A stretch of 64,000 bases of DNA from a virus (Duplodnaviria; Caudoviricetes). Each line of letters opens with the position of its first letter. Position 1 is the stretch's first letter. Below are positions 3,914 to 35,179 of the stretch, piece after piece. The stretch is from IMG/VR virus record IMGVR_UViG_3300030061_001386, positions 1 to 64,000 of that record. One strand, written 5' to 3'. The position numbers and the translations under genes were made by a program. A model generated the notes under the pieces. The model was not told the DNA's origin. It worked only from the letters and a program-made list of their open reading frames with translations, and did no database searches.

Positions 3914-5494
3914 CTATATTCCTGATGCAGATTGAAGTATTTTCCAATCTCCTTGATACTTAGCATCTGCTAATTTCCTAGCAGAAAGAACTACATCTAC
4001 CTGTACTGGCCCTTTATCTTCAGGCAAAGGGATAGTTACGCTTTGTGTAATGTAGTCTTCAAACTTTAATTCAATGTAATCATCTACTGTACTATTATCC
4101 ATATCCTTAGCAAACCTTAGAGTTAGTTGTTGACCACTACCATTAGACTCACCATCCTTTCTTAGTTCATCCCAAATGGTTGTATCTGTTATAAGCAATG
4201 ATAAGTTAATGTCATATGTTCTCTGAGCAGGTATATGTGCTGACATTATTTGACGAGAAGATTGTCCTATGAATCTTTGAGGAGTTATGTTGTTATTGAT
4301 AGCAACACTACCTGACTTTACTCTAGCAACAGTCTGACCGTATAATTTAATCTGACCACCTGAAAACAAGTAAGGTCTGATATTAGTATCATCAGCATGA
4401 TAATTGAATAAACCAGTAGCCGAACTGTCATTTGTTCTTTGCCTTCTTCTAGGTGTATAACCCGCAGGAGCATCAAAAGCCCTTCTTGTAACTAAGTCTA
4501 GATTTGCTTTCAACTCTTGTCCTTCATCGAAGTTCATAGTTAAACTGTTTACTTGACATCCAGTAAATACTCTAGCATAGATGTCTTTGAATGGTCTTGT
4601 AGTGCTATCAGTTGTAGTACCTAATGAACCAACATAATAGTTAGCATCTGCTAATCCTGATTTTTCATATGTTACTTCTAATGCGAAAGAAGGTAATGCG
4701 TCTCCATTATTCTCAGTAAAATCATAGAGATAATAACCACCTGTATTTTCTGTTACTTGTTTTAATGCACTTATATCTGAACTTGGAGGATATTCCTTTC
4801 CTCCTATTGTTCTAACGAGTCTATGGTTAGTTGTATCTAACGCTACTCCTGTACCTGATAAACTACCTGCTGAACCTAATCCATGAGCCGCCCCACCACC
4901 TGCTCCTCCGTTAGCAACAGTATAGTCTCCTAGTGCATAGTATAACCAAGAACCATTACCCATTGAAATATCTAAAGAACCACCACTAACGGTTTCTCCT
5001 TTCTTGTATTGGTATCCTAGATTTCTAGAACCACCTAATGCTAAACTAACTTGTGCTACTTCTACTTCTACATTAGGAGGAGTTAGAGTATTAACAAGAC
5101 CTAGCCAATTATCTGCTAGTAGTGTTGGTTTTCCTGTTATTACATTAGGAGCAGGAGAAGGTGCGCCAAAAGACATGATAGTAATATCAATGTCATCATC
5201 AACTGCGTCTCCAATATTTTCTGCAAAGGTAATAGTGTTTCCAGTATTACTCTTAATCATATATGTTCCATTAAAACTAGCACTTGTAGCGTTTACTATC
5301 TTAGCCATACATCCTTGATATAAGTTAGTCACTAAGGTCATTGCAACACCTTCAACAGCATCAATCAAATCAACAGTAGTAAAATCTGCAAGAAGGTCGC
5401 ATCCTTCAAAATAGATGTCACTTTCAGGTATCATTGTAGCACTTACACCTGCTCCTGTAAACACCTCATCTGTCAAAATTGTTGTTGTCGTCAT
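3914..5494 (-). CDS. Major tail tube protein
   Basis: 526 aa; LPSFALEV...RVFTGCQVNSLTMNF pattern of siphovirus/archaeal-virus tail tubes; gene position. Confidence 0.75.
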   Translation of the reverse strand: MTTTTILTDEVFTGAGVSATMIPESDIYFEGCDLLADFTTVDLIDAVEGVAMTLVTNLYQGCMAKIVNATSASFNGTYMIKSNTGNTITFAENIGDAVDDDIDITIMSFGAPSPAPNVITGKPTLLADNWLGLVNTLTPPNVEVEVAQVSLALGGSRNLGYQYKKGETVSGGSLDISMGNGSWLYYALGDYTVANGGAGGGAAHGLGSAGSLSGTGVALDTTNHRLVRTIGGKEYPPSSDISALKQVTENTGGYYLYDFTENNGDALPSFALEVTYEKSGLADANYYVGSLGTTTDSTTRPFKDIYARVFTGCQVNSLTMNFDEGQELKANLDLVTRRAFDAPAGYTPRRRQRTNDSSATGLFNYHADDTNIRPYLFSGGQIKLYGQTVARVKSGSVAINNNITPQRFIGQSSRQIMSAHIPAQRTYDINLSLLITDTTIWDELRKDGESNGSGQQLTLRFAKDMDNSTVDDYIELKFEDYITQSVTIPLPEDKGPVQVDVVLSARKLADAKYQGDWKILQSASGI

Positions 5495-6027
5495 ACGCTT
5501 CTCCCCATTCTCTTCATCTCTACGCCTAGTTTATAGCCCAATAACCTTTTCTTTCTATCATTGGCTTCACTCCTACTTTGCAACTTTATTATTTCTGCAC
5601 TATCGGTGTAAACTGTTCCCCCCACTGTCGTAGATATAGTAGGGCTAAGTGAGTTTGTCTCAAGAACATGTCGCAAGATTCTGTATAATATTCTAAGTCT
5701 ATCTCTAGATGTTGTATTATCAGCAAAGTCTCTTCTATGTAATACTCTCATATGTATTGTAAAAGAGAATGTTTCATTTCTAACTGCGTAATCCATAGTA
5801 GGATATGTGGTAGAAGAACTATCTTCATAGACAACAATAACTGCTGAATCACTATCAGCGTCTACTCTTCTTCCTTCCTTTGGTTCAATTGAGCGAACAT
5901 CTATTACTTTAGGAACAGGTAAGTTAACGGATATTTTTCCACTATTGTATAATGATAATGCAGAGGAACTCCAATTATCAGTAATCAATCTCATTACAAA
6001 TGTAACTTCATCAAGGAGTTCTGCCAT
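5491..6027 (-). CDS. Putative tail terminator/completion protein
   Basis: Directly upstream of the tail tube gene; size and alpha/beta pattern fit. Confidence 0.5.
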   Translation of the reverse strand: MAELLDEVTFVMRLITDNWSSSALSLYNSGKISVNLPVPKVIDVRSIEPKEGRRVDADSDSAVIVVYEDSSSTTYPTMDYAVRNETFSFTIHMRVLHRRDFADNTTSRDRLRILYRILRHVLETNSLSPTISTTVGGTVYTDSAEIIKLQSRSEANDRKKRLLGYKLGVEMKRMGRSV

Positions 6028-6199
6028 TTACTGCCTCCATTGCTTTTTCTTGTACTTTACCTACAAAGACATCTAATGCATGTTTGAACACTTCATCATC
6101 ACTAAGAGAAAATCCCGCATAACCTAGTTCTGCAAGTGCTTCATTTCTTTCCATCTCTCTATCCAAGAGTTCACGAAATAAATTGTTTAAGTTTTGCAT
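6011..6199 (-). CDS. Small hypothetical protein (neck region)
   Basis: Overlapping gene packing within the neck/tail operon. Confidence 0.5.
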   Translation of the reverse strand: MQNLNNLFRELLDREMERNEALAELGYAGFSLSDDEVFKHALDVFVGKVQEKAMEAVNGRTP

Positions 6200-6203
6200 A
6201 GTA

Positions 6204-7283
6204 TCACGATATGAAATGTATTAGATTCTTTTTACCATCAACTATTTTATTTGCTTCTTCAAGCATAATGTCATGTTTGGTTTTCAAATCAATATTAGAA
6301 TCTGTCTCAGCAATTAAAATTGAGTTGTCATCATGCCTAATAATTTCTGCCGCAACAAACTTAGTCGCCGCTTCATGTATTGGTGCAGGAACTCTACCAT
6401 CACCCGCAACATATGCAACTCTAATTGAATGATTAGTGATGTGAGGATATTCTTGTAAAAAGAATATTTTCCCCTCACTTTTCATTTGCCAAAAGTCTCC
6501 TCTTCTTCTTTGGTCTTGATGGTCAGTAAACCCTTCTACTGTACCGAATGTAGAAGAAATTGTACAGTTAGACCCGTCATCACCTAGAAGTAATGAAGAT
6601 ATTACAATTGTATCTCCTTGTTCTGAATCAGTGGTAGCATAGAAGAAATCTGAAATATGTACGCTATCATTTCCGTTTGCCGTTACAGTTTTAGATGTAG
6701 TTTCTCCTGTAAACCTAGCCGTCTTCATAGGATATACTTCGTTGATAGCATCAACTATCTGACTTGCAGTAGTCTTAGGGCCGAAGTTATCAAAGAACTC
6801 AGTTGCTTCATCTAACTCAAATGTATATGTTCCTACCGTTAAAGATATCTTCCAAGCACTATTAGTTACAGTACTTGGTACTGTTAGTCTAGCAGTTGCT
6901 GATGCTAAGTCTTTCCAATTATTACCTTGATATATTTCTAACCTGACTAACTTCTGAACTTTAGGTTGAGATAGTTGTATGAACCCAACATAATCTTTGT
7001 ATGGTCTTACTGGGTATGCTCCCTGATTGAATGCTGTATCGAAAGAATGAAACTCTTCATGGTGCAATATTGGTCTATATGATTGTTTGATACTGTCATC
7101 TATTTTTTCTTCTACTCTTTTTATTATCTTACCTACTTCTGCTCTTGTAGGTGTTGTTGTATCAGAAAATGCTCCGATTTGTAATAAATTAGAAACATCT
7201 GTATGTGTAGTATAGTAGCCATTACCTAACGCATAACTAACATTAATATTTGTAAAATCACTTGGAGAACTTACTTTACCCAT
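6204..7283 (-). CDS. Putative head-tail adaptor/connector
   Basis: N-terminal YTTHTDVSNLL and C-terminal IRVAYVAG...VPAPIHEAA segments resemble gp6/gp15-type adaptors, with an internal insertion. Confidence 0.6.
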   Translation of the reverse strand: MGKVSSPSDFTNINVSYALGNGYYTTHTDVSNLLQIGAFSDTTTPTRAEVGKIIKRVEEKIDDSIKQSYRPILHHEEFHSFDTAFNQGAYPVRPYKDYVGFIQLSQPKVQKLVRLEIYQGNNWKDLASATARLTVPSTVTNSAWKISLTVGTYTFELDEATEFFDNFGPKTTASQIVDAINEVYPMKTARFTGETTSKTVTANGNDSVHISDFFYATTDSEQGDTIVISSLLLGDDGSNCTISSTFGTVEGFTDHQDQRRRGDFWQMKSEGKIFFLQEYPHITNHSIRVAYVAGDGRVPAPIHEAATKFVAAEIIRHDDNSILIAETDSNIDLKTKHDIMLEEANKIVDGKKNLIHFIS

Positions 7284-7287
7284 CTAA

Positions 7288-9354
7288 TCACCTTTCTATC
7301 ATTTCCTTTAATCCTTCATACTCAGTATAAACTAATCTTAATTCATCAGCATCATTAGAATCAGTAAGGGTAGTTCTATTTTCTATTTGTTTATCTGAAG
7401 CACCTATTCCTCTTTCAGAAAATCTACCTGTTTTGAATCTATCTTTACCACCACTAGTACGCCGACCAATATTAGTATCTACTTGACTAGTAACTTTTAT
7501 TTTTCTACTAAACGTTAAGATTGGTATTCCTTCAGTATCGGATACTTTGAACTCAACATCTCCTTCTCTTTTCCAATCTTGACTTTCTTCTAACTGTTCT
7601 TTTATTGTAGACATTAATCCATCAGTATCATCAGCCTCTGCTAATAGTGGAATAATGTTAACTGATTCTCTATAATCCCCACTCTTGATGTTCTTTAGTA
7701 TTGCTTCTATTTTTGTTATGAAAGTAGTATGATTTCCGAAAGCAGGATAGTATGGTTTATTTTCAATGACTTGTTTACCATCTTTATCTTTTTTAGGAAT
7801 AATTTTTTGTTCTGTTTTTTCAGTTTTAGGATTTATAAAATCAATATTTTCATATTGTATTTCTTCTATCTCATTATCTTCTTGTAGGTTAAGATTATCT
7901 TGTTTTATATTAATTATTAACATAGAGAAAAAAGCGAGTAATTCCTTTCTTTTTTTCTCAGACAACACTTGTATAAACCTATCAAAAGGTGCTTCGTTTT
8001 TATCATACACATAACTACCCCAATTAGATTCTAAATCATCAAACAGTGATTTTAACATAAGAGTTCTTTTTGTCATATTTTTAACAGCAGATGTAAGTTT
8101 CTTATCTTCATCCTTTCCTCCACCTTTAACAGCCCATAAAATAAATGCTTCTTCATCTTCCCACTCTCTCATTTTCAGAGTAATACTTACTTGGCCTAAA
8201 TCAATTTTATTTGATTGCGGAGTTAATGCTCCTAGTATTGCATCCTTTAATCCTGATTTTCTTTGTGACCTAACTATCTCAATAAGTTCCTTTTCATTTG
8301 GGAGAGATATATCTTGCAAACTTTCCCAAAGTTCCTCTAAGTTTTCACTTCTATTGTCCGTGTTAAATGCTTCTTTCTTACCAAATGAGTTTAATTCATA
8401 TCTACCATTACCTAAAATCTTCAGACTAACAAGTTTGTTAGACCCCTTTGTTTCGGCTTTTCTTAACATCTTCTGAGTAATACCTGCATCATCATCTTCT
8501 TCCTCTTCCATACCTTCAGCAACTTCTCTATCCATTTCTGCTTGGTATGCTTCTTCTTCCTCTGCCTCTTTTTCTTTCTGAGTTTTTTTCTGTTCTGCTA
8601 TTTCCTTAACACTTAGATTCTTTCCTTTAATAGAATTAAATTGAAATGAATCTTCACCTAGTGTTCCATATCCTTCTACCTTGAACAGTTTAGTAAAATA
8701 CCCTTCAGTATCAATAGTAATATCTGTACCTGTTGTTGATAAGAACTCTTGTAGTGTGGATGGATATAGTACAGGCTCACTTCTATCAAATGCGCCTAAC
8801 AGTCTACTGCTTCGAGAAATGTATTTGTCTTTTGCTTTTTCTTGAGCAGGTTTAGTCTTCCTATCAGTATCATCTAACCCCTTACCATATCTGTCTCCTA
8901 AGAGTTTACTTACTTTCAAATCATTACCTAAATCAATAAGACGAGTATTTTGGTCATCCATCACATCTCTCAGACCTTCAGAGAATGCACGATTTTTACC
9001 ATCAGGTTGAATATAACCCATTCCTTGTAGTTCAAGTACTAGTTTGGACAATGGGGCTTTTTCTATAACAGAAAGAAACGATTGTAGATATTCATCATAT
9101 TCTTCCTCATCGAAATACAAGTCAGTACCTTTGTAGTCACTATCATCTAAAGTAATTAGATTTCGTGTGACCCTTCTAACCTTTTGCATGTTAGGTGTAT
9201 CTGATACAGAATTGAATACATATGCGGCTAGGTTTCTGAATAAAGGTTGGTTATCTAACAAATCTTCCCATTTACCTTTTTTATCTTTAGGAGTTAAAAC
9301 AAAACCTGTTTTTAGCCTATCTACCACCTTATCATTTACTCTTATATCCGGCAT
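7288..9354 (-). CDS. Large hypothetical protein, highly charged with an acidic tract
   Basis: 688-aa ORF in the structural operon; no recognisable motif. Confidence 0.6.
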   Translation of the reverse strand: MPDIRVNDKVVDRLKTGFVLTPKDKKGKWEDLLDNQPLFRNLAAYVFNSVSDTPNMQKVRRVTRNLITLDDSDYKGTDLYFDEEEYDEYLQSFLSVIEKAPLSKLVLELQGMGYIQPDGKNRAFSEGLRDVMDDQNTRLIDLGNDLKVSKLLGDRYGKGLDDTDRKTKPAQEKAKDKYISRSSRLLGAFDRSEPVLYPSTLQEFLSTTGTDITIDTEGYFTKLFKVEGYGTLGEDSFQFNSIKGKNLSVKEIAEQKKTQKEKEAEEEEAYQAEMDREVAEGMEEEEDDDAGITQKMLRKAETKGSNKLVSLKILGNGRYELNSFGKKEAFNTDNRSENLEELWESLQDISLPNEKELIEIVRSQRKSGLKDAILGALTPQSNKIDLGQVSITLKMREWEDEEAFILWAVKGGGKDEDKKLTSAVKNMTKRTLMLKSLFDDLESNWGSYVYDKNEAPFDRFIQVLSEKKRKELLAFFSMLIINIKQDNLNLQEDNEIEEIQYENIDFINPKTEKTEQKIIPKKDKDGKQVIENKPYYPAFGNHTTFITKIEAILKNIKSGDYRESVNIIPLLAEADDTDGLMSTIKEQLEESQDWKREGDVEFKVSDTEGIPILTFSRKIKVTSQVDTNIGRRTSGGKDRFKTGRFSERGIGASDKQIENRTTLTDSNDADELRLVYTEYEGLKEMIER

Positions 9355-9369
9355 TCATCAGACCCCAAC

Positions 9370-10080
9370 CTATGCAAGCCATTTAGCCCATGCAACTGCT
9401 TTACCCAAACCTGACGCTAAACCTAATCCACTTTGAGGTGGAGTATATGTCGGCTGTCCTGTTTGCGGGTCTATCCAATACGGATTGTTCATGTTGTCAT
9501 AACCACTTGGAGGAATAGGATAGCCACTACCGTTGTTCATAGCCATTTGCTGTTGGTTTAAGGTATTGTTAAAATTAGTACTCATATTGCCCCCTTGTAT
9601 CTGACTTGGGCTTAAGCCTTGAGGGTTAGGTGCGCCCATACCCATTTGTGGAGTTGTAGTAGGTGTCTGTTGTTGTGGAGAAGAGAAACCTTGTGCTTCT
9701 AGGTATTGTTGTTTAGCCATCCTTCTTTGCATAACAACTTCACTATTGATTGCAGTAGCCAATAGATTCTGCAAATCTAAATCAATATTTTCTTGCGTAA
9801 TACTAGTAAAATCAGAAAGTGCTTCAGGTGACATTACTAAGTTTCCACTTGAACTTTGATTGAACTCTAACTTAACTAACATTTGACTAACTGTTCTTGT
9901 AACTGTATCTTCAATTAGTTTTTCTAATGCTCCTAAGAATGCTTCTCCATGATACTGAAAAAAGTCTTCTACATGATTTTCTTGTAGTGTCAAAAGGTTG
10001 TTCATTGCTTTAAATTGAGTCTGCTGTTGCGCCCCAATTTGTGTTGATAAGTTACTATTGCTTGTTCCGAATAATCCCAT
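9370..10080 (-). CDS. Q/N/P-rich low-complexity protein with amphipathic C-terminus
   Basis: ORF composition; abuts the upstream gene. Confidence 0.6.
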   Translation of the reverse strand: MGLFGTSNSNLSTQIGAQQQTQFKAMNNLLTLQENHVEDFFQYHGEAFLGALEKLIEDTVTRTVSQMLVKLEFNQSSSGNLVMSPEALSDFTSITQENIDLDLQNLLATAINSEVVMQRRMAKQQYLEAQGFSSPQQQTPTTTPQMGMGAPNPQGLSPSQIQGGNMSTNFNNTLNQQQMAMNNGSGYPIPPSGYDNMNNPYWIDPQTGQPTYTPPQSGLGLASGLGKAVAWAKWLA

Positions 10081-10754
10081 TACTCTACCTCCTCTTGCTC
10101 CGAACCTGATACTACCTTAGCACCTTCAGTTAATAGTGTTTTGATTCTTTCGTTAATTCCGTTGTTTTCTATTACTAGTCTAAACAACTCTTCTTCCTTA
10201 GTTTCAGAAACACTAGAAGGAGGATGTATTGACCATCCTAAAGATGAAAGAGACTGTATATCTTGTTGCTTTAACCCTGTTAATGGCCCACTTGCTAATG
10301 GGTTTAGAGTTTTAACTGAAGGAATATAAGCACTAAAAGAAAGCCCATGTTCTTCTGCTAATATTTGTTGTTCTAACATTTCATATTGCCTGTGTATCTG
10401 AGCATGTTTTTCACAATAAGTACCACGCATTGGATATCCCTTTCGCACCTTATGTAATGGAAGTGGTGGCCTCATTGCATCCCCTGCTTCCCAAACCTTT
10501 TGTGAACCACATACTACACATCTATCTTTTAAGTTGTATTTGAATCTGTATGGTATCTTCAAGAACTTTTTCTTTTCAGGCATTAATATCTTAGTTATCT
10601 CTTTCAATTGTTTCTTTGGCTTTGTGTTTTTAAACTCATAAAACATTACCGCACCTGCGGCTCTTGCGGCTGAAAACCTATCTAGAAATGGGTTCGCTCC
10701 TGTATTCGCTGACTGTGCGCCAATCAAACTTGGTGGTTGGAATTGCATTGACAT
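10080..10754 (-). CDS. Putative Zn-binding protein
   Basis: CVVC...YCEKH ligand pattern followed by a coiled segment. Confidence 0.55.
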   Translation of the reverse strand: MSMQFQPPSLIGAQSANTGANPFLDRFSAARAAGAVMFYEFKNTKPKKQLKEITKILMPEKKKFLKIPYRFKYNLKDRCVVCGSQKVWEAGDAMRPPLPLHKVRKGYPMRGTYCEKHAQIHRQYEMLEQQILAEEHGLSFSAYIPSVKTLNPLASGPLTGLKQQDIQSLSSLGWSIHPPSSVSETKEEELFRLVIENNGINERIKTLLTEGAKVVSGSEQEEVE

Positions 10755-10767
10755 CTATCTCTCTCCT

Positions 10768-11439
10768 CTAGTAGTCCCTTATCATTGTTAGGATTCCTCT
10801 ATATACCATCTCTGAATCAGATTTAGCACTTACAATATACTTATGACATGGGATTCCTTTATCATTTAACTTCTGCATCCCATTCCTAAATGACTCAAAT
10901 ATTGGGTGTTTTTCTATCTTACCTTCATAGTCATATTTGTCTTTCCATAAGTCGTATTTGTTAGCCCAAAGAGCAACAGCAATTGGGTAGTCGTGCATTT
11001 TCTTTTTCTTCTTTTTTCCTTTAACGTTCCAATAAGGAGAACAAATAGTATCCACTAAAAAAGTCCAACATAACTGTTGTTCTATATCGTAGTGTTTATC
11101 CATATGTCTATCATCTAACATGAATATAATATATTTAACATGTCGAGTACGCATATCTTCAACCCACTCAGTCCAAAATACAGTCTCTCCACCAACATCA
11201 GCAGTTTTGACAGTATGTGCATCACCATCTAATTTTACATACTTTCTAGATGCTCTCTTTAACCCAACCGTTCTATCTGTAATGGAAGGAACTTCACCTC
11301 TAGTTCTGAGTTGATGATGTAGTGTAGTTTTACCTGCTTTACTTGCTCCATATACCCCAAAAGGAATTGAGTGAAGTCTTTGATATACTTTGTTAAGTCC
11401 TTCAACAAGTAGTATAGCAAAACCTGCCATTACTGACAT
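10768..11439 (-). CDS. Small Ras-superfamily (Arf/Sar-like) GTPase
   Basis: All five G motifs: G1 GASKAGKT, G2 T (RTVG), G3 DVGG, G4 NKYD, G5 SAK; hydrophobic N-terminal helix. Confidence 0.85.
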   Translation of the reverse strand: MSVMAGFAILLVEGLNKVYQRLHSIPFGVYGASKAGKTTLHHQLRTRGEVPSITDRTVGLKRASRKYVKLDGDAHTVKTADVGGETVFWTEWVEDMRTRHVKYIIFMLDDRHMDKHYDIEQQLCWTFLVDTICSPYWNVKGKKKKKKMHDYPIAVALWANKYDLWKDKYDYEGKIEKHPIFESFRNGMQKLNDKGIPCHKYIVSAKSDSEMVYRGILTMIRDY

Positions 11440-11445
11440 TTTGCC

Positions 11446-11673
11446 TCAACCCCATAGATGATGCCAAAAACTAAACATTCCGTCTAATATCCATTGAAAT
11501 ACATTTATCCCAAAAAGAGGTAACATATGTCCAATAGAAAAACTAGCAACACAAGCAATACCACCCCAAAGAAAAAATCTTGCTCTTAAGAACCATATAT
11601 CAGCAGAATGCGCTCTTTGTAAATCATAGGCTAATGTGGATTCATCGAATCCCATTAGTATTTCTGAAACCAT
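11446..11673 (-). CDS. Small membrane protein
   Basis: Hydrophobic FFLWGGIACVASFSIGHMLPLFGI segment. Confidence 0.6.
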   Translation of the reverse strand: MVSEILMGFDESTLAYDLQRAHSADIWFLRARFFLWGGIACVASFSIGHMLPLFGINVFQWILDGMFSFWHHLWG

Positions 11674-11682
11674 TCTTTACCC

Positions 11683-12102
11683 TCATTCATTGAATTGGGT
11701 TAAAAATGTTGGACTCAATGCGTTTTCGTTTGGTGTAACTGTTTGCATAAATGGAGTCTGAATCTCCCCATAGTTTTGTTGTTGGAATGTTTGATTAAAC
11801 TGACGTAATGAATCTCTAACTCTCTTACGGTTTTCTTCTTCTCTAGCCTTTCTGTTCCAATACCCGTCAATGTTTCTCTTTAGCAAGAACTCTTCTATTA
11901 TGTCATTCAAGAACAAATCGAATACTGCCTTCATAATCATAATGAGTCCTACGGTAGAAATACCAAATAGAACTGCATGAGAGAATCCCCCATATGGAAA
12001 GTTAACTCCTACCATTTGGTAAAAGTAAATATTAACACCACTCATTGCTCCTACGAACAATATGGTCATAATTAATCTTGTATCTGTATCAATTGATGGC
12101 AA
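11683..12102 (-). CDS. Membrane protein, 2 TM helices plus charged coil
   Basis: Two hydrophobic spans; likely TTG start at 12102 after GGAG (track start 12144). Confidence 0.6.
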   Translation of the reverse strand: MPSIDTDTRLIMTILFVGAMSGVNIYFYQMVGVNFPYGGFSHAVLFGISTVGLIMIMKAVFDLFLNDIIEEFLLKRNIDGYWNRKAREEENRKRVRDSLRQFNQTFQQQNYGEIQTPFMQTVTPNENALSPTFLTQFNE

Positions 12103-12106
12103 AGTA

Positions 12107-12391
12107 TCAACTCCATGTACAGGAGTATGCCCCACCACTCCCACTTAGTATTGCGGTAATACCAGTACCCATTGCTCTACCATGAAGGTCAAACTCTGTT
12201 GTTGTATTAGCGGTTAGAATTAATCTAGCAACTTCATCAGATGAACCAACAGTAGTACTAGCACTATCGTAGATTTTTAGTGTTGCAGTACCAGTTGAAG
12301 TGAAATGAACACTATTTAGTTTACAAACACCAGTATTCAAAACTGCACTAGCGGTTCTAACGGGGCTACCTGCGACTCCCCCGACCATCAT
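12107..12391 (-). CDS. Putative minor capsid/decoration protein
   Basis: Small T/S/G-rich beta protein two genes downstream of the MCP. Confidence 0.4.
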   Translation of the reverse strand: MMVGGVAGSPVRTASAVLNTGVCKLNSVHFTSTGTATLKIYDSASTTVGSSDEVARLILTANTTTEFDLHGRAMGTGITAILSGSGGAYSCTWS

Positions 12392-12807
12392 TTCACATCC
12401 TTCTTAGTGGTCTTTTTAGCAGGTGTTTTCTTTGTGGTTGTTTTCTTAGCAGGTGTTTTCTTCACCTCTTCTTTAGCAGGAGCAATAGTTTCAACAACTG
12501 TTTCCACTACTTCTTCTACTTTCTTTTTGGTGGCTGACTTTTTCTTAGGGTATAGAACTGATAAAACATTATCTTCTTCTGCAACATTCAAATGTGCTTT
12601 CAGATGATTTAGTTTTCGACCTTCTAGTGTTGAAATGTGCTTCTTATCGTCTTGTGTAAAATCAATAAGAATTGATTCATCACCGCAATAATCTATTGCA
12701 ATGTTTGCAGGAACTTCGCACCATGTATGCGCTCCTATCGAATATTCGCCTTTTCCTATTACTATCTCGCCTTCAGGTCTATGTCTTACTAGTTTCATTA
12801 ATGCCAT
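12388..12807 (-). CDS. Hypothetical protein with K/T/P-rich tail (PAKKTT repeats)
   Basis: Follows the MCP; GGAGG upstream. Confidence 0.6.
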   Translation of the reverse strand: MALMKLVRHRPEGEIVIGKGEYSIGAHTWCEVPANIAIDYCGDESILIDFTQDDKKHISTLEGRKLNHLKAHLNVAEEDNVLSVLYPKKKSATKKKVEEVVETVVETIAPAKEEVKKTPAKKTTTKKTPAKKTTKKDVK

Positions 12808-12829
12808 AATTATGCCTCCATTATATTGG

Positions 12830-12871
12830 GTAGTATCCCCTACCCCGATAGTTCGGAGTAGAGGGTACTAC
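12830..12871 (-). terminator. Strong hairpin downstream of the MCP (terminator/attenuator or mRNA-stabilising stem)
   Basis: gtagtatcccctaccccga / tcggagtagagggtactac imperfect inverted repeat. Confidence 0.55.
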
Positions 12872-12900
12872 TTTACGTTTTCACTTTCTAATGAAGTACC

Positions 12901-14295
12901 TTAAGCACTCTTTAGGTTAGTAATCTTACCTTGTCCTTTGAAGAAGGAACAGCATGTCTCACCCATAGTGCGGTACATACCTTGGTTTCCAAGTTTACCA
13001 ACACCGAATGGGTTTCCACTAGTAATACCATCTTCGAAGTATTGTGTAGGTTTCATTACAGATAGCCATAGGTGGTCAGTATCTAGAATCAGTATATCAC
13101 TGATACGGTTAGATGTACTCAGACCAGTTGAAGGCATGTCCTTAGCAGGTATAATTGGTATGTCATAGTATGTTGCAACTCTGAAACCAACTTCTTGACC
13201 CTTAACACCACGAACACCATTATGGGTAGGAACAATCTCTTTCCTGTCCATGAATCTTTCTTGTGCTTGTAGCAAGTCAGAAAGTTTCTGTATGGTATCA
13301 TATCCAGTAAGGATAACTTTAGGGTTTCCACCGTTTTGGCGTATTTTCCTAATCATATCGTTAAGTAGGCTCAATGTTAGAACTCTACAATCACCGGATG
13401 CATAACCTGCACCGAAATCAACTTCAGCATCTAGGAAAGAAGCAACACCTGTGTATGTGAAGTTTCCACTACTACCTGTGTTTCCAACTGTTACAGTTCT
13501 TGTTGAACCATAGATAGTTGCCGCATCTGCAATGTTAGCAAAAGTACCATCGTTGTTCTTACTGTTGTGGAAGACGTTATCTTCCTGCATCATAGCCAAC
13601 TCAGCCGCAGATGAAACTATCTTCATTAGTGAAGTATAGTTCTTCTCAATACCTGTTGTACCGTTCTCGTTGTACTTCTCAAGAGGCATAACTAGCATCT
13701 TGCTTTGTACTTCAGCGTGTAGTTTACCCATGTCCTCACGAACAATTGCTCTGATGTCACCGACACCATCATCAATTGCGGCAAGTTCCATTCCAAGTTC
13801 TGAGAACTCAAACAGATGTGCAATAGTCTTAGGGCTAACGTATAGTTTTGTGTACTCAGGTGCTAATGCATGGAAGTCTGTACCAATTACAGCATTCTCT
13901 CCAACTCCACCAATAGTATCTGCTCTTGGTGTTGCCGCATCAGCAGAACTAATTGAGCCAGTTACAGCGTTAGAACCTGTTGCGAAATTAGAACCACTAC
14001 CACCAATAGGTCGGCTCTTTAGAACTCTCCAACCTGAAGATGTGTATGGCCTCTTTGCAATCATAGAAAGAGGGTTTACTTCTTGGTTCAGCATAGACCA
14101 AACTTTCTGTCCATAAAGAACGTTGTATAAGTCGCCTAGTCCAGCCGCCGCAGTAAAGGGGTTTGAAGAAGCATCGTGAGGAGTTCCGAATCCTCCAACA
14201 ACTCCACCCGCTTTGAGTAGAGCATTACCGGAGTTTCCACCGTATCCGTACGTAGCCGCTTCTAAGTCTTTCATTGTCTTAATATATCCTGACAT
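12901..14295 (-). CDS. Major capsid protein (HK97 fold)
   Basis: 464 aa directly downstream of the prohead protease; GGNPKVILTGYDT and YYDIPII segments resemble halovirus/magrovirus MCPs; highly expressed-type codon usage. Confidence 0.85.
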   Translation of the reverse strand: MSGYIKTMKDLEAATYGYGGNSGNALLKAGGVVGGFGTPHDASSNPFTAAAGLGDLYNVLYGQKVWSMLNQEVNPLSMIAKRPYTSSGWRVLKSRPIGGSGSNFATGSNAVTGSISSADAATPRADTIGGVGENAVIGTDFHALAPEYTKLYVSPKTIAHLFEFSELGMELAAIDDGVGDIRAIVREDMGKLHAEVQSKMLVMPLEKYNENGTTGIEKNYTSLMKIVSSAAELAMMQEDNVFHNSKNNDGTFANIADAATIYGSTRTVTVGNTGSSGNFTYTGVASFLDAEVDFGAGYASGDCRVLTLSLLNDMIRKIRQNGGNPKVILTGYDTIQKLSDLLQAQERFMDRKEIVPTHNGVRGVKGQEVGFRVATYYDIPIIPAKDMPSTGLSTSNRISDILILDTDHLWLSVMKPTQYFEDGITSGNPFGVGKLGNQGMYRTMGETCCSFFKGQGKITNLKSA

Positions 14296-14297
14296 AT

Positions 14298-15524
14298 TTA
14301 ATCACCTCTTGTTAATGCGTGTAGGTCGTCCCAAGACATATCAGCCGCCGCCTCAATGCTTGTTGGAAATCCTTCAGGAAGTGACATAGCCACTTCTTGT
14401 GCTTTCCTAATCTCAGAGTTTCTCTCTGTTAGAGATTTGCGTAGTTCAGCAAACTCTTCTTTCAGAGCCGCTACATCAGTACGAGCATCATATTCTGCTC
14501 TTTCTGCGTTAGCCTTTTTTACAGATAGTTCGTTAGTAAACCTTGCTTCGAACTCTTTGCTTAGAGAATCGTAAGCCATTGCTTCCATTCTCTCTGCTTT
14601 GAACTTAGCATAAGCCTTCTCAACATTTTCAGCACTCAAGTCAAGAGTAGAGAAATCAGTTCCCTCTAATCCTTTTGCTACGTTAAGTGCGGCAGGTGCG
14701 GCAGTAGGCTTTCCTCCACTTACTACTTCTTCTCCTGCTTCGAACTCTCTTGTTTCATCTTCATCAAGAGCCTTCTCTTCCATGTCTTCGTCTGCTTTTT
14801 CTTCCATGTCTTCGTCCATGTCGGCTTTTTCATGTCCATACATTTTCTCATCCATATCTGCATCAGTATCCATATACTCTGCGTTCTTCGTTACGGCGTC
14901 ATCAACTTCACTGTGAACGTTGTTAACTTGTTTCATCAAGTCATTCAACTCTTCCAGTGCTTTTTCCAATTTTTCACTCATTGTTTTATCCTCCATTTTT
15001 AAAATGTCGAACTTTGCTTCGGGATTAATCCCTTTCTCGCAGATTGTAACTTCATGCAGTTCCAACCTGTCTATCTCGTTGTACTCCCCATACTCATCAG
15101 AAGTCTTTTGCTTCTTTGAGATGGCTTGTCCACCTATACTAAAGGAACGAAGTGTTCCTTTTCTAATACCTCTTGATATTTCTTTTGCCTTTTCTATGTC
15201 ATCTCTTAGTTTGATAACTACATAGAACCCTACATCATCAACTGAAGTCTTGTGCAGTACACCGTGACTATCACGATATTGCTCAACAACTTCTCCAACT
15301 TGTACATTAGAATGATTAGACATTACATTTCTGTATTTCTCATCAGACATGTATTTCTTAACAGCATCATTTAATGCTTCTAGTGTGATTAAATCATTTT
15401 GTTTGTCAACTATTTCTATTGAAGCATAACCTCCAATGATTAGATTGTCTGACTTAAGAATGCTGAACTCATGAGAAGATTCTGCCTTCAGTAAAGGAGA
15501 TTCCATCATCAACATTGCAGTCAA
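14298..15524 (-). CDS. Prohead protease with C-terminal scaffold domain
   Basis: IIGGYAS...DKQND...H...GTLRSFSIGG...LHEVTICEKGINPEA (HK97/herpes-type serine protease), followed by an acidic coiled coil. Confidence 0.9.
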   Translation of the reverse strand: MTAMLMMESPLLKAESSHEFSILKSDNLIIGGYASIEIVDKQNDLITLEALNDAVKKYMSDEKYRNVMSNHSNVQVGEVVEQYRDSHGVLHKTSVDDVGFYVVIKLRDDIEKAKEISRGIRKGTLRSFSIGGQAISKKQKTSDEYGEYNEIDRLELHEVTICEKGINPEAKFDILKMEDKTMSEKLEKALEELNDLMKQVNNVHSEVDDAVTKNAEYMDTDADMDEKMYGHEKADMDEDMEEKADEDMEEKALDEDETREFEAGEEVVSGGKPTAAPAALNVAKGLEGTDFSTLDLSAENVEKAYAKFKAERMEAMAYDSLSKEFEARFTNELSVKKANAERAEYDARTDVAALKEEFAELRKSLTERNSEIRKAQEVAMSLPEGFPTSIEAAADMSWDDLHALTRGD

Positions 15525-15558: not shown

Positions 15559-18153
15559 TTAATCCTTTTTAGGTGTTGGGAAGTCTAATACAGCATATGT
15601 GTCTTCAGTAATATTCCATTTGTTAGGGTTCTCTTTATCCTCTAACATCTCTTGCTTCTTACCTGTCCATGCAATCCAACTCTTTTTCTCATCTAACGGG
15701 ACTACTCTGAAATGCATTCGAGTTTCAAACTTATCTCCATCAAGACGATATTCGTGATAACCATCTTTTTGTATTCCTAATTCAATCTCTCCTTTATCTA
15801 ACACTTTCTTTGACTCTCCTATTTTCTTAGAAACAATAGCAGGATACTTACCTGATTTACCGAATAGGTCATAGATATCTGTATTGCCTTCTATGTCTAT
15901 TGTCCAAGCCATACGTTCATCTTGGTAATCTATGATTAAATCTACATTATCGTCTTCTCTCAAAACGATTGTATATTTTCCCATGTTGTCTTTCTTCACT
16001 AGTTCTTCAATATCTTTTTCTAAAATATCTTCTCTAGCAGTAAACTTGTTCGGATGTAAATAGACTAAATCTTCTTGTTGTTTCATCCACGCCATTAGTT
16101 TACCATCATCTGAATCAAATAAATCTGCAAATGCTCCTTGATGTTTATCTACAACAAAGTCTAGTATTTTGCTAAATGGTAAGTTATCCCTACCACTTTC
16201 TAATATCTCATTCCTAATTGCTAACCTAAACATAGAACGTTTGCTTTTCATTATGTTAGCAACTTGTTCTTTCCACAAATCTATGTTATGTAAAGCATTT
16301 TTCTGCATTAGGCTATCTCCTTCAAACCCATAAATAGTAAATCCATTTAAGTCTTCTTTGAGTATTATTTCAGCAGTACCATGTGTATGGTCTGTAATGT
16401 AATATCCTTTCTTGACTTTCTTTTTCTGACCTCTTGGGTTTTGCAATCCACTAGTAACTTCAAACATCCCACCCACCTTATCTCCAAAGGTATATCCCAT
16501 TGCACTCAATGATTTTTTTGTCTTACTCGCAAGTTGTTCTAATGTCTCAACGGAATCAGAACGGGTGACTTCCGGTATCTCTATTACCTTAGCAGAAAAT
16601 AATTTGAACCCGTCTTTACCTTTTTTCACTTCATCAACTTTAACTCTAACAATACTACCAATCTTAACAGATTCTTTTGTATTCAAAGCCTTACCTACTT
16701 CAAGATAATCTTTATCTTCAAACTCAATTGTTTTGTAATTTCTTGCGGTTTCAGCATTTACTGGGCCAATACCCATAGTGTAAGAGTGTAAATTGCTTTT
16801 AGTTTTCTTAGCATCTAGCACTACTACATCCAAATCAACAAACTTCTTCCACTTAATCCACTTAGGATTTTTCTTAACTCCAATGTAATATGTTGATTCT
16901 ATGTCTTTAATTACAACTCCCTCAGAAGCAGGAAGTTGCATAATCTCTTTTGCATATTCTTCTACTTCCTTAATTGAATCTGCTATCCTTGTGTCTTTCT
17001 TGGATGGGAAGGCTAAGTCTTGTGATGAATGTTGAGAGTATTGATAGAGTAGAATATTATGTCTTTCTCTTAATGTTTCATCAGCAATGTTCTTTCCCTC
17101 ATGAACCATTATATCAAAAACATGCGCTCGTAGTTCCCCGCCCTTTTTATTTTTGAAAACGTGTGCAATTGTGTCTGCTCGGTGTAGTGGCTCATCTTTC
17201 ATAAACAACATTAGTTCACCATCTAATATACAGTCATTGAATGATTTCTTTTCAAGAGCCTTAACTTGCTCAGGACATTTACTAGTTATGTCTTTCTCGT
17301 TGTAAGAATAAATCGTTACCTTATTATTGAACTTATGAAGTTGTATTCTCATACCATCATATTTTTCTTGGACTATGTATTCTCCTGTCAACCCCTTAAC
17401 TTCTTTTAAATCATCAATCTCAAATATTCTATACATTGGTTTATTTGGAATTATGAAGTCAATAGATTGCTTTTCTTCATCACTTTTTGCAATATCTAAA
17501 TCTACTAAACTATCCCACTTATCTTCACTATATTCAGAACCGTAGACTTTTTGTAATAATTTGTATGCTCCCTTGAACTTGTTTTCTATTCTACGGGTAT
17601 CTTCATCTTCTTTACCATAGTGTTCTATAATGTAAAGTGGAATATCTTTAGGTTCTAAATCAAGTCCCATGTAGTCTCTTGTAATCTCATCAGGTTTCAA
17701 ATCAACTGCTAACCATGCTTTATCGGGAAGAGGATTAGCGTGAGAACGTAAAGCATAATGTATGAATGCGGCAAACGTAGACTCATCTTTGAGTAAAGTA
17801 GCAATTACCTTATCACCTAACTGTTTAGAAAATGGGTCACTTACTTCATCTGATTTGAATCTCATTTCCTTTATTGCTTCATACAATTCTTTAGCCTGTC
17901 TTGAACTAGGATTATATGTTTCATCAGAAAACGCTGTGTCTTCTTTTAGATATGTTTTGAGTTCTCTAGTAAAATCATCTATTGTATCGAACTGTTCTCT
18001 AACATCTTTTACTGTTTTTTTCCAAGCATCACCATATTCATCAGGGTTTTCTTTTGCAGAAAGATAAGAATACCTAACACGCTCAAAGAAGTCCAATACT
18101 TTCTTAGTCATTGTATTGGTTTCTTTCTCAAAAGATAACCCTGTCTGTGGCAT
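15559..18153 (-). CDS. Large ATP-dependent DNA ligase inside the head module, with N- and C-terminal extensions
   Basis: Motifs I QEKYDGMR, III LDGE, IIIa VFDIM, IV EGVVIK, V WIKWK, then an OB domain. Confidence 0.85.
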   Translation of the reverse strand: MPQTGLSFEKETNTMTKKVLDFFERVRYSYLSAKENPDEYGDAWKKTVKDVREQFDTIDDFTRELKTYLKEDTAFSDETYNPSSRQAKELYEAIKEMRFKSDEVSDPFSKQLGDKVIATLLKDESTFAAFIHYALRSHANPLPDKAWLAVDLKPDEITRDYMGLDLEPKDIPLYIIEHYGKEDEDTRRIENKFKGAYKLLQKVYGSEYSEDKWDSLVDLDIAKSDEEKQSIDFIIPNKPMYRIFEIDDLKEVKGLTGEYIVQEKYDGMRIQLHKFNNKVTIYSYNEKDITSKCPEQVKALEKKSFNDCILDGELMLFMKDEPLHRADTIAHVFKNKKGGELRAHVFDIMVHEGKNIADETLRERHNILLYQYSQHSSQDLAFPSKKDTRIADSIKEVEEYAKEIMQLPASEGVVIKDIESTYYIGVKKNPKWIKWKKFVDLDVVVLDAKKTKSNLHSYTMGIGPVNAETARNYKTIEFEDKDYLEVGKALNTKESVKIGSIVRVKVDEVKKGKDGFKLFSAKVIEIPEVTRSDSVETLEQLASKTKKSLSAMGYTFGDKVGGMFEVTSGLQNPRGQKKKVKKGYYITDHTHGTAEIILKEDLNGFTIYGFEGDSLMQKNALHNIDLWKEQVANIMKSKRSMFRLAIRNEILESGRDNLPFSKILDFVVDKHQGAFADLFDSDDGKLMAWMKQQEDLVYLHPNKFTAREDILEKDIEELVKKDNMGKYTIVLREDDNVDLIIDYQDERMAWTIDIEGNTDIYDLFGKSGKYPAIVSKKIGESKKVLDKGEIELGIQKDGYHEYRLDGDKFETRMHFRVVPLDEKKSWIAWTGKKQEMLEDKENPNKWNITEDTYAVLDFPTPKKD

Positions 18154-22426: not shown

Positions 22427-24082
22427 TCATCCTACTCTCCTCTCTGTTCTCTTGTCCACATTCTCATTTCCTGCTTCTCTTGGTAATCCTGTAAATCTTT
22501 TATCCGGCCCTGTGGACATTGACGGTTTGTTTCTCGTAGCGGGGGGGTTCTCTTGAGGTTTGCTCTCTCCTCCTTGATTACCCATCATCATCTGTTCTTG
22601 CATTTGTCCCATCTGACTAGCGTCAATATCTGTTCCTGCATACGGGTCTAAACTAATATCTTCTTCTCCTTCACCACCTTCTGCTTGTTCCGGTTTAGGT
22701 TCAGGTTTAGTGTAAATAAATCTACCTTCATCATCCATATCAACTTCAAATCCTAAGTTCTTAATTGCGGCGGCAACGTTAACTTCTATCTCTCTCTTAC
22801 GAAGAACAGCAATTTCATCTTCTTCTTCTGATGGTGGGAGTTTCAAACACCAATCAGTTATACCGAACTCTTCTGTCATAAACGGGAATACATAATTATT
22901 CCAAATAGTCTGTGCCATTTCCACTGCTCTATTAGTGACTAGTACTTGCATACCTTCGTTATTTAAACCACCACTAGCAGAATTATCTGCCATGAATATT
23001 TTACTCACACCATAGAATGCTGAAATCCTATCTCTCAAATCATCTTTAACTTGTATGTAGTCCATCTCCTTCAGACTATCCATAAACTTGACCCATTCAA
23101 CAGAACCTTTTCCTCCTTCAGATTCTATTCCCATTACAGGTATGAAGTGTGGGTCTTGTTCCATCTTTTCTTTGACACCACGCCAAAACGATTTCATTGA
23201 ATCCATGTTTCTAGTTTGAACAGCCAATAATCCCTTCGGCATTCTTGCCTTAGTATAGGAAGAATTAACATAATTCTCCATAGCAATTAATGTAGTAATG
23301 TTATTCCAAAGTGTTATGACGGGTGAAAGTCCATACAGTCTACTTGGTGAATATTTACTAAAGTGTAAAACTTCACCCTTCACAAAGTACTGTTCTTCTC
23401 CGTTTACTCTGTTAACATAATGAACAGGATGTAGTTCTGAATTACAAGTTTCGCAAAGGTCACTAGCATTTTCATGTACTCTATGTCTATGTCTCAAACA
23501 GGTATAACCATTTTTACCCCTCTCTCCAAGTTGATTAGAATAAATATGCATTGTTACTGGGTCGCCACGATATACTTCTTTGATTCTATGCATCCTAACA
23601 GAATTGTTATTATCAGCATAATATTCCTTAACCATGACCATATACGCATCATCCATGATATTCAAGTCATCTTCAAGTTCTTTCAATACATCAATAAACA
23701 TCTGTTCTGAACAGTTAACATACCCCTCTAAGAACTCTTTAGCATATTTCAGTTGGTCAGGATTTGGCTTTTCTAATTCTAAACTCCCACACTGTACACA
23801 TTCTTTAGTTGCGTTTTCGTGTTCTTTACCACAAGACCTACATTTTACTGCGAACTTAGCATCCCAATTGTAACCTCTTCTAAATATCTCCTGCTTAAGT
23901 TGCGTAATACAAGTTCTAACAATTGTTGATTGCGTAACTATGTGGTAAATGATAGGTGTTGTTAACAGATACGAATTATCCTTCTCCTGAATACCCGGAT
24001 TAAATACGGTTCTATCTGCGGGTTTAGGGGTTGTCTGCCTAAACAAATTGCTAATACTAAATCTTCTCTTTTCTTCTACCAT
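22427..24082 (-). CDS. Portal protein with Zn-ribbon insertions
   Basis: EVLHF...YGLSPV...ISAFYGVS HK97-like portal motifs; CxxC pairs; lies between terminase and protease. Confidence 0.85.
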   Translation of the reverse strand: MVEEKRRFSISNLFRQTTPKPADRTVFNPGIQEKDNSYLLTTPIIYHIVTQSTIVRTCITQLKQEIFRRGYNWDAKFAVKCRSCGKEHENATKECVQCGSLELEKPNPDQLKYAKEFLEGYVNCSEQMFIDVLKELEDDLNIMDDAYMVMVKEYYADNNNSVRMHRIKEVYRGDPVTMHIYSNQLGERGKNGYTCLRHRHRVHENASDLCETCNSELHPVHYVNRVNGEEQYFVKGEVLHFSKYSPSRLYGLSPVITLWNNITTLIAMENYVNSSYTKARMPKGLLAVQTRNMDSMKSFWRGVKEKMEQDPHFIPVMGIESEGGKGSVEWVKFMDSLKEMDYIQVKDDLRDRISAFYGVSKIFMADNSASGGLNNEGMQVLVTNRAVEMAQTIWNNYVFPFMTEEFGITDWCLKLPPSEEEDEIAVLRKREIEVNVAAAIKNLGFEVDMDDEGRFIYTKPEPKPEQAEGGEGEEDISLDPYAGTDIDASQMGQMQEQMMMGNQGGESKPQENPPATRNKPSMSTGPDKRFTGLPREAGNENVDKRTERRVG

Positions 24083-34526: not shown

Positions 34527-35179
34527 TGTAACTTATCCTCCATTTGCTTTCTAACGTCTAACCAAACTTCAGGATGATTCTGTGCCAATACTTCTTTGAT
34601 GATTTGCATTTGGTGAATAATAACAGTGTCTTGTCTCTTGTGGACTAACTTACCCTTGAACTCCATTAGATACTTCAAAGATTCACGAACCTCTTTTGCT
34701 AACTTAGTTAGTGAATCTATGTACTTAGCATCCAAATCATCTGAATCCATGAGTTGGTCTAACTTACCTTCAAGCCTAGAGATGTTACCACTAAGAGTAT
34801 CAATCTCATTTACTTCCTTAACTGCTAGAATATGTGCGGCGGCTTTTTGGACTAGAGGTTGAGTGTGTTGTTTTATGTGTCTGACAACTTGCTCCTTAGA
34901 ACTACCAACAATCTTAGCCGCTAAATCAGGAGTCATATCTCCACTGTAAAGTTCTTGCTCAATTTCTGAACGGTTCTCATATGTACATAGTTTACATCTT
35001 GGATTTGAAGCATCTGCATATCCTTCCATGTGATTACGTTGATGTTTTGCACTTGTGCCACTAGGCCAATTCATTCTAATATCCAAATCATCAGGTGAAC
35101 AAATCATAGTCTCCAAATCAGATTCAAGGGATTCCCTGTCCTCATGATTACAAAGCCTACAACGTTTTCTTGTTACCAT
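34523..35179 (-). CDS. Tandem CxxC...HxxxH Zn/HTH protein, candidate terminase small subunit
   Basis: Two repeats (CRLC...HQRNH and CKLC...HIKQH) plus a C-terminal coiled oligomerisation-like region; upstream of terL in the same operon. Confidence 0.45.
   Translation of the reverse strand: MVTRKRCRLCNHEDRESLESDLETMICSPDDLDIRMNWPSGTSAKHQRNHMEGYADASNPRCKLCTYENRSEIEQELYSGDMTPDLAAKIVGSSKEQVVRHIKQHTQPLVQKAAAHILAVKEVNEIDTLSGNISRLEGKLDQLMDSDDLDAKYIDSLTKLAKEVRESLKYLMEFKGKLVHKRQDTVIIHQMQIIKEVLAQNHPEVWLDVRKQMEDKLQ

Follow-up and report, generated by a model that had tools for sequence, protein, structure and literature searches.

What would an Arf-like small GTPase, set among small membrane proteins, be doing in the late region of a tailed virus of archaea? 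The question is raised by a five-gene block at 9370-12102 of a 64,000-nucleotide stretch of viral DNA (the window), the first 64 kb of the IMG/VR record IMGVR_UViG_3300030061_001386, which has 92,721 bases and is rated 94% complete. A preliminary description of this DNA, made from the letters alone, had outlined the block, and its coordinates were correct: the interval is filled by five co-directional minus-strand open reading frames (ORFs) of the types it described, namely a protein with two transmembrane (TM) helices (g1), a small TM protein (g2), the GTPase (g3), a Cys/His protein (g4) and a Q/N/P-rich protein (g5), which are spaced by 9, 6 and 13 nt and then overlap by 1 nt (Table 1). We report here that this cassette is a conserved, self-contained accessory unit of the magroviruses, the tailed viruses of marine group II archaea, and that its GTPase represents a new and divergent branch of the Arf-like switches, the first that we could find among viruses of archaea or bacteria. 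No counterpart has been described for the cassette that surrounds it.

Conservation of the block was a point on which the preliminary description had made its reading depend. When IMG/VR was scanned with the window GTPase, 183 of 189 candidate stretches were confirmed, and 80 of these 183, with GTPases 76-99% identical to that of the window, were kept as the close set. The order g1-g2-g3-g4-g5 is kept throughout these 80 loci: g2, g3 and g4 were detected in all of them, g1 in 78 and g5 in 73, the missing detections of g1 and g5 falling at contig ends. A capsid gene lies upstream of the cassette in 75 of the 80. No gene of the region is better conserved than the GTPase; the corresponding identity range for the capsid protein is 64-97%.

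More distant relatives were collected by scans from two other family members, P0136 (80 loci of 81 confirmed) and P0135 (4 loci), with GTPases about 30% identical to that of the window. BLAST with the window proteins detected the GTPase in 82 of these 84 loci, g4 in 2, g5 in 1 and the capsid protein in none. The architecture of the cassette is nevertheless seen in the 66 distant loci where the ORF finder placed the GTPase. A g1-like TM protein of 120-240 amino acids (aa) precedes the GTPase in 53 of the 66, and a g2-like ORF of 55-95 aa with a hydrophobic segment lies directly upstream of it in 50; a g4-like CxxH protein (190-360 aa) follows it in 63, and a g5-like protein rich in Q, N, G, M and P (185-280 aa) comes next, again in 63. 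Both g4 and g5 can be aligned across the groups and have conserved cores. In 55 of the 66 loci there is a sixth gene after g5 (g6), which encodes a protein of 70-95 aa with two TM segments (for example at 9184-9417 of L125); it is absent from the window lineage, where g5 is followed instead by a variable protein of 560-1300 aa.

The location of the cassette is less constant than its content. In the window the capsid gene lies upstream of it and the tail-tube gene downstream, which agrees with the earlier placing of the block inside the virion operon. This does not hold for all the relatives: in the near-complete genomes G001, G002 and G004 the cassette is 6-11 kb upstream of the terminase gene on the same strand, with both terminase and capsid genes downstream. 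The gene that follows it in these three genomes encodes a Cys-rich protein of 228-282 aa, the window homologue of which (34541-35176, E 1e-36) is about 23 kb away from the window cassette. Since the five-gene order is constant but the position within the late module differs between genomes, the cassette relocates as one block. Purifying selection acts on each of its five genes, with the GTPase under the tightest constraint; the median ratios of non-synonymous to synonymous substitution (dN/dS) over 12 close genomes, rough values because dS is near saturation, are 0.17 for g1, 0.18 for g2, 0.06 for g3, 0.13 for g4 and 0.15 for g5.

A three-gene counterpart of the cassette occurs in a different tailed-virus lineage, on the metagenome contig L168 (Table 1). 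Its GTPase, P0181, passes the Pfam cut-offs of both SRPRB (27.9 bits) and Arf (24.7 bits), and the trio is directly upstream of an HK97-gp10-like gene (21.3 bits, cut-off 21.4), a protease-like gene and a Phage_capsid gene. The 251-aa protein of this trio was considered as a g5 homologue and rejected, as hhalign gave a probability of only 0.9%; the likeness is positional and compositional.

The g3 product carries the G1 motif GASKAGKTT, the G3 motif DVGGE, the G4 motif NKYD and the G5 motif SAK. Residues G31, G36, K37, D81, G84, N160 and K161 are invariant in an alignment of 16 family sequences, and among 238 unique full-length members GKTT and NKxD are each present in 235 and DxGG in nearly all. 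The preliminary description had remarked on a glutamate at the position of the catalytic Gln of Arf; this is correct for the window protein (E85) and is not a family trait, the 238 members having E in 124 cases, Q in 102, D in 6, H in 4 and A in 1, with one unmatched. The Arf signature of switch II, DxGGQ, has a Trp seven residues beyond the Gln; the tryptophan W92 of the window protein, found in at least 90% of the alignment, is aligned with this Trp of the Asgard GTPase GerdArfR1.

An N-terminal hydrophobic helix had also been claimed, and the AlphaFold2 (AF2) model of g3 (pLDDT 89.2, pTM 0.86) bears this out, with a helix predicted at residues 2-22, ahead of beta1 of the G domain. The N-terminal stretch of 12 residues is hydrophobic, and an amphipathic helix is predicted for residues 5-22, with a hydrophobic moment of 1.35 on the Kyte-Doolittle (KD) scale. 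The sister proteins P0180, P0181 and P0160 have longer, TM-like N-termini. Two further elaborations are visible in the AF2 model: after NKxD the chain has an additional segment, and a conserved polybasic beta-hairpin with a run of Lys is inserted at about residues 136-150. Averaged over the family, the net charge of the 24-aa insert that precedes beta5 is +3.8. A 264-aa metagenomic relative, P0143, has a Cys-rich insert of its own (at least 4 Cys in about 15 residues) between NKxD and the conserved HPIF segment, which resembles a zinc knuckle within the GTPase.

How close is this protein to Arf? Compared singly with Pfam, the window GTPase remains below every threshold (SRPRB 20.4 bits, cut-off 25; Roc 18.2; Arf PF00025 17.0, cut-off 22.3); its only NCBIfam match is the generic small_GTP domain, also below cut-off, and alone it has a single match in the PDB (E 0.23). 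When 16 members were scanned one by one, Arf gave the best E-value (1.9e-15) and tied for the most members matched (7/16 at E<=0.01), its cut-off being passed only by the distant relatives P0160, P0168, P0169, P0174 and P0181. For a profile built from 16 diverse members, the best match in the PDB is the Asgard ArfR structure 8OUN (E 1.9e-10), in an alignment that runs from the N-terminal helix to beta4, followed by mini-Gq, Arl8A, Arl3, Arl8B and Arf, while Rab33B and KRas score about 9 bits lower. A RecA hexamer fusion scores against the family profile as well, by way of its six P-loop copies.

The predicted fold points in the same direction. Foldseek with the g3 model returned small GTPases of all kinds, and re-alignment of its best 1000 matches (the VIA ranking, in which the chain was inferred from the entry title for three of the top 36 rows) placed only Arf, Arl and ArfR proteins in rows 1-36, with Z scores of 19.2-17.7 and root-mean-square deviations (rmsd) of 2.2-2.5 A over about 160 residues. 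The best of these is ARF6 (Z 19.2, rmsd 2.2 A over 161 residues), and Arl1, Arl3, Arl6 and Arl8 are within 1 Z of it. The first rows outside the Arf group are LokiRagO (17.7, rank 37), G-alpha-i3 (17.3, rank 44) and a mimivirus Rab (17.1, rank 49). The model superposes best on GTP-form Arf structures, from residue 19-25 on. By its family profile and predicted fold, then, g3 is Arf-like, as had been proposed; as the Arf margin is only about 2 Z, we speak of an Arf-like protein and not of a member of the Arf family.

Where does such a GTPase come from? A collection of 5.8 billion proteins yielded 362 relatives at E<=1e-3 among 553 candidates, from marine metagenomes and on contigs of up to 104 kb. 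When 1.84 billion representative proteins were searched exhaustively with phmmer, 59 matched at E<=1e-3; they are the family itself, its fragments and a few distant metagenomic proteins. With so few matches, there is no close relation to any large cellular family. In 185,579 species genomes there was a single locus (L167), on a 28.9-kb contig (NZMJ01000101.1) of a metagenome-assembled genome (MAG) labelled Maricaulis sp., with 74% identity; this is most likely a mis-binned viral contig of magrovirus type in a bacterial MAG. Judging from these searches, the GTPase is not an ordinary host GTPase that was captured recently, an origin that would have told against the preliminary description, and it has no close cellular homologue.

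The window GTPase, P0136 and P0160 found no match by tblastn in 50,697 GenBank records of phages and archaeal viruses, and at that sensitivity there is no homologue in a cultured halovirus. IMG/VR scans from P0160, P0134, P0143 and P0166 gave no loci, and P0174 was a singleton in the search. The first 50 rows of the BFVD search are all giant-virus proteins, none being from viruses of prokaryotes. The profile A2 reached Heimdallarchaeal Arf-like proteins (E 1e-11 to 1e-8), in a search that sees only word-sharing proteins and is no proof of nearest kin. In a quick tree (34 rows, unrooted, with few reference families) the magrovirus proteins group with four metagenomic proteins (SH-aLRT 91), and this clade is separate from the Arf-like rows of Heimdallarchaea and ciliates that the A2 search had supplied. 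The sole Ras/Rab-like row does not fall outside the Arf-like rows, and the tree therefore cannot decide between Arf and non-Arf. The link to the origin of the Arf family that had been suggested at the outset is one of resemblance; the viral clade is neither inside nor next to the Asgard and eukaryotic Arf proteins in this small tree.

Among the 120 relatives listed, 3 carry the automatic JGI name 'GTPase SAR1 family protein'. We found no published description of the cassette or of a magrovirus GTPase, though supplementary gene tables may list the gene; 'GTP' does not occur in the main texts of PMC5434244, PMC10160649, PMC10768690 and PMC8651126, and the same is true of GTPase and GTP-binding for that of PMC11706807.

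Pfam, PHROG and NCBIfam have no family for the other four genes, g1, g2, g4 and g5. The start of g1 in the window is the TTG at 12102, and its relatives have ATG at the same codon, with the conserved motif PSIDTDTRLIM after it. With its TM segments and K/R/E-rich tail, this small membrane protein has, by hydropathy, a holin-like architecture, and it matched no holin family; a recent review gives as the hallmark of holins one or more TM domains together with a C-terminus that is hydrophilic and highly charged (PMC10791045).

The zinc binding that had been ascribed to g4 is plausible, perhaps as a zinc knuckle, although only part of the putative ligand set stands: C79 and C114 never vary among 14 diverse homologues and H117 hardly does, while C82 is not conserved. 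The AF2 model of g4 has a mean pLDDT of 62.7 and is more reliable in a core of roughly residues 40-140, and VIA comparison with 48,161 PDB representatives gave no match with Z >=5 (best Z 4.0). A co-fold of the g3 GTPase with g4, GTP and Mg returned an ipSAE of 0.00 in both runs, which were made without controls and speak neither for nor against binding.

The g5 protein has a conserved central domain of about 110 aa in an alignment of 24 sequences. ESM Atlas searches with g5 and g4 reached 0.80-0.81 at best, with no family and inside the tool's stated noise range, and the nearest named clusters for g5, P22_gp7 and T7_gp14 (0.76), were likewise within that noise. Directly after its start Met, g5 has an aromatic N-terminal motif of the form M-(G/V/A)-W/L-(L/P/F)-F, which is MGLFG in the window (10066-10080) and MVWPF, MAWW or MSWW elsewhere; the g2 proteins of other lineages (L082-L165) share it (MGWLF, MWPF). 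This motif could serve for membrane insertion, as a recognition tag or as a processing site.

Contigs from seawater metatranscriptome libraries of two studies (four runs, contigs only) contain the region. Those of run X1 cover most of the cassette, in pieces within 9109-11189 with a word depth of 4.5-7; cover is patchy in X3, and X5 and X6 have almost nothing in 7602-11514. The capsid and protease contigs have a depth of 50-85, about ten times that of the cassette contigs, in data that rank no genes and prove no transcription or timing: DNA may occur in RNA libraries, and uncovered parts are no finding. The high-depth contigs over the protease gene, the capsid gene and two small genes (12100-15000) stop at points from 11866 to 12351, shortly ahead of the cassette, which hints weakly at attenuation or a transcript boundary in this place.

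What, then, might the cassette do? Tentatively, and with rather less than even confidence, we read it as a late, GTP-switched module that works on the host membrane, with egress as its most likely purpose. The cassette would be transcribed together with the morphogenetic genes. The proteins g1 and g2, with the third small two-TM protein in other lineages, would insert into the host cytoplasmic membrane, on which the GTP form of the GTPase would dock by means of its N-terminal hydrophobic helix and polybasic hairpin. Once docked, it might recruit or activate the soluble g4, a possible regulator, and g5, with its low complexity and potentially membrane-active ends. All together they would deform or breach the membrane, and in this way most likely set the time at which progeny leave a host without peptidoglycan and bring their release about. 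The membrane association of the cassette proteins is a prediction from their sequences, and late expression is deduced from gene context; membrane binding by the GTPase, a partnership among all five products, their late timing and a function in egress are all things that we infer.

Several observations lead us to egress: the membrane features of the cassette, its mobility within the late region, the lack of a recognisable lysis gene in 50 ORFs, the precedent of ArvA and the general ignorance about egress in the literature. A Pfam scan of the 50 window ORFs found no holin or endolysin family, as the preliminary description had stated, although small holins could escape such a scan; there is no cell-wall hydrolase family either, in the cassette or in the 50 ORFs scanned. 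The egress machinery of archaeal tailed viruses is described as completely uncharacterised in a 2024 review (PMC10791045). The paper on ArvA of Haloferax describes it as a small GTPase that begins with an amphipathic helix, shares an operon with a Zn-ribbon protein, its proposed regulator, and drives vesiculation of the membrane (PMC10927574). A bolder generalisation, that magroviruses, which rank with the most abundant viruses of the surface ocean, release their progeny by GTP-timed membrane disruption, with an Arf-type switch and small membrane proteins replacing the job of holin and endolysin, seems to us rather doubtful.

A number of points weigh against egress. Lysis genes usually evolve fast, and a GTPase conserved beyond the capsid protein is unusual for a lysis gene. 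The N-terminal hydrophobic run of the window GTPase is too short for a TM helix, and its Arf score is beneath the Pfam cut-off. On the evidence of its model, g4 is without a recognisable fold, and it has no match to the Pfam OapC model and no detectable likeness to ArvC or ArfGAP; OapB (ArvB) is absent from the genome. The depth of the cassette contigs in the RNA libraries is far below that of the capsid and protease contigs. Finally, the cassette is always within the morphogenetic half of the genome, and the L168 trio is directly before head genes, an arrangement just as compatible with a part in virion assembly or in what the virion contains.

This last point brings in an explanation of another kind, in which the cassette proteins are virion-associated, either as internal head or ejection proteins or as head-assembly accessories, and would be packaged along with the DNA; set free at entry, they would make or regulate a channel through the host envelope, with the GTPase as an injected switch or an assembly checkpoint. 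Its constant presence in the morphogenetic half, between head and tail genes in the window and directly upstream of the HK97-gp10-like, protease-like and capsid genes in L168, is what such a function would predict. Phage ejection proteins typically have hydrophobic segments and low-complexity G/Q-rich regions, and these are features that the cassette shares. We nonetheless consider a virion role unlikely: the position relative to the head and tail genes is not fixed, while structural genes usually keep their order, no PHROG structural family was matched, and the Atlas scores for P22_gp7 and T7_gp14 are at chance level. Moreover, we know of no packaged small GTPase in tailed viruses.

The membrane features on which egress is argued are shared by a host-membrane role that is not lytic, such as mimicry or takeover of ArvA-type vesiculation, a membrane-bound site of assembly or packaging, or a block to superinfection. 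The ArvA precedent, as its authors present it, is one of vesiculation and not of lysis (PMC10927574), and the strong conservation of the GTPase would fit contact with a conserved host component. The cassette has, however, no sequence link to ArvB or ArvC, OapB being absent and the one OapC match lying outside the Zn ribbon, and tailed viruses, lacking a lipid envelope, have no need of budding; a function of this sort is, in our opinion, not very probable. That the five genes are mere neighbours, a stand-alone accessory GTPase (for example a captured host regulator) flanked by ORFs unrelated to it in function, is very improbable. It is true that g1, g2, g4 and g5 belong to no known family, but the gene order and layout persist among lineages whose GTPases are only about 30% identical, the block relocates whole, all five genes are under purifying selection and the GTPase has no close cellular homologue.

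With respect to its surroundings, the cassette lies in a genome of familiar plan. Leftward transcription and morphogenetic genes characterise the left two thirds of the window, while the right third is transcribed in the opposite direction and carries the replication genes; the sign of the GC skew switches near 42-44 kb. In size, gene set and the two opposed modules, the window virus is magrovirus-like, in agreement with magroviruses and Magrovirales as described in PMC5434244 and PMC10768690. Magroviruses are ranked in the former as the third most abundant group of marine viruses (PMC5434244).

Table 1. Position of the cassette, of its counterpart in L168 and of the neighbouring late genes (window coordinates unless a contig is named).
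Feature	Position	Strand	Remarks
Large terminase	26199-27659	-	
Portal	22427-24082	-	
864-aa protein with ATP-dependent ligase domain	15559-18153	-	between portal and prohead protease
Prohead protease	14298-15524	-	
Major capsid protein	12901-14295	-	SU10_MCP E 5.8e-10; phrog_24667 major head protein E 3.2e-24
Lys-rich protein, 139 aa	12388-12807	-	upstream of cassette
94-aa protein	12107-12391	-	upstream of cassette
g1, 139-aa membrane protein	11683-12102	-	2 predicted TM helices, charged (K/R/E) helix, Q/N-rich tail
g2, 75 aa	11446-11673	-	one hydrophobic TM-like segment, C-terminal half
g3, 223-aa Arf-like small GTPase	10768-11439	-	
g4, 224-aa soluble Cys/His protein	10080-10754	-	C79-x2-C82 ... 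C114-x2-H117, then long helix
g5, 236 aa	9370-10080	-	MGLFG start, central domain, Q/N/P/G-rich linkers, basic amphipathic C-terminus
Acidic 688-aa protein, variable	7288-9354	-	downstream of cassette
359-aa protein (phrog_17057) and 178-aa protein	within 3914-9354	-	downstream of cassette
Tail-tube-like protein	3914-5494	-	downstream of cassette
L168 trio	336-2027 of 4705-base metagenome contig		74-aa 1-TM protein, GTPase P0181, 251-aa MWPL Q/G/M-rich protein

The 688-aa protein is the most variable neighbour of the cassette, being detected in 45 of the 80 close loci and ranging in size from 560 to 1300 aa. The window has two genes for ATP-dependent DNA ligases, one in the morphogenetic module (15559-18153), where the ligase is a domain inside the 864-aa protein, and the other in the replication module (57827-59377), which encodes a standard three-domain enzyme. 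The replication or early module (49612-54575 and 61933-62850) also encodes a class II ribonucleotide reductase-like protein, a TFIIB-like protein with a Zn ribbon and a cyclin repeat, a ThiF/E1-like protein and an RFC-like clamp-loader subunit.

The cassette is a concrete candidate for the egress function of archaeal tailed viruses. If GTP-timed egress is true, it would be the first egress system known for these viruses, and Arf-style membrane switches would circulate in the virosphere of non-Asgard archaea, beyond the line that leads from Asgard archaea to eukaryotes. Provided that the cassette acts on membranes, it would add a viral branch to the few prokaryotic Arf-like switches, the Asgard ArfR proteins and the euryarchaeal ArvA, and would bear on the spread of GTP-switched membrane binding before eukaryotes. 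Should the proteins be internal to the virion instead, a packaged GTPase would be new for tailed viruses.

Comparison with known systems puts the cassette near several of them and inside none. It has the look of a phage lysis cassette in its small membrane proteins with charged C-terminal tails, its compactness, its place in the late region and the shifts of that place among relatives. The lysis genes of lambda are located upstream of the packaging genes, and so is the viral cassette in several relatives. It differs in having no cell-wall hydrolase, a host without murein, a GTPase at its centre and a conservation far above that of the usual holins. Giant viruses also encode small GTPases, of the Rab, Ras and Ran types, and theirs are the only viral matches in the first 50 BFVD rows; these, however, are close copies of host families in eukaryotic viruses, whereas the magrovirus GTPase has an archaeal host and no close cellular relative.

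The eukaryotic Arf, Arl, Sar1 and SR-beta proteins offer the nearest solved folds, together with weak Pfam matches to SRPRB and Arf. Unlike them, the window GTPase lacks the Gly2 context for myristoylation, has insertions and falls below both Pfam cut-offs, and no exchange factor (GEF), GTPase-activating protein (GAP) or coat partner is known for it. The likeness to ArvABC, with ArvA compared only by its published description (PMC10927574), consists of a small GTPase with an N-terminal amphipathic helix near a Cys/His protein, and the viral cassette differs by the addition of two or three integral membrane proteins and a low-complexity protein. A search for ArvB (OapB, DUF2073, PF09846) at E<=0.1 came up empty over the whole 92.7-kb genome, and its Haloferax volcanii control was positive. 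A match to OapC (ArvC, DUF2072, PF09845) on the 688-aa neighbour (residues 254-322; 18.2 bits by hmmscan, 23.3 in the genome search) is probably compositional, because its place is a stretch rich in Glu and Lys and it spans positions 39-103 of the profile without reaching the Zn ribbon. With OapB absent, g4 without a match and the OapC match probably compositional, we have rejected the idea that the cassette is a copy of ArvABC.

The Asgard ArfR proteins are perhaps the most instructive comparison. GerdArfR1 and HodArfR1 are Arf-family GTPases, and an N-terminal amphipathic helix is named as the defining feature of that family in the work on them, 8OUN being the GDP form of GerdArfR1 (10.1101/2024.02.28.582541). 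Sequence identity to the viral GTPase is only about 19-20%, and the viral family has in addition a polybasic hairpin insert, a segment after NKxD, E or Q as the catalytic residue and a G5 motif of the SAK type; it comes from viruses of Thermoplasmatota-type hosts, while ArfR comes from Asgard cells. What they have in common, on that published account of ArfR, is an N-terminal amphipathic helix without a myristoylation signal. In ArfR, DxGGQ is followed by a conserved Trp, the residue with which W92 of the window protein is aligned. To this can be added that 8OUN is the best match of the viral profile, and that the ArfR structures 8OUM (Z 17.8) and 8OUK (Z 17.7) are among the folds nearest to the viral model.

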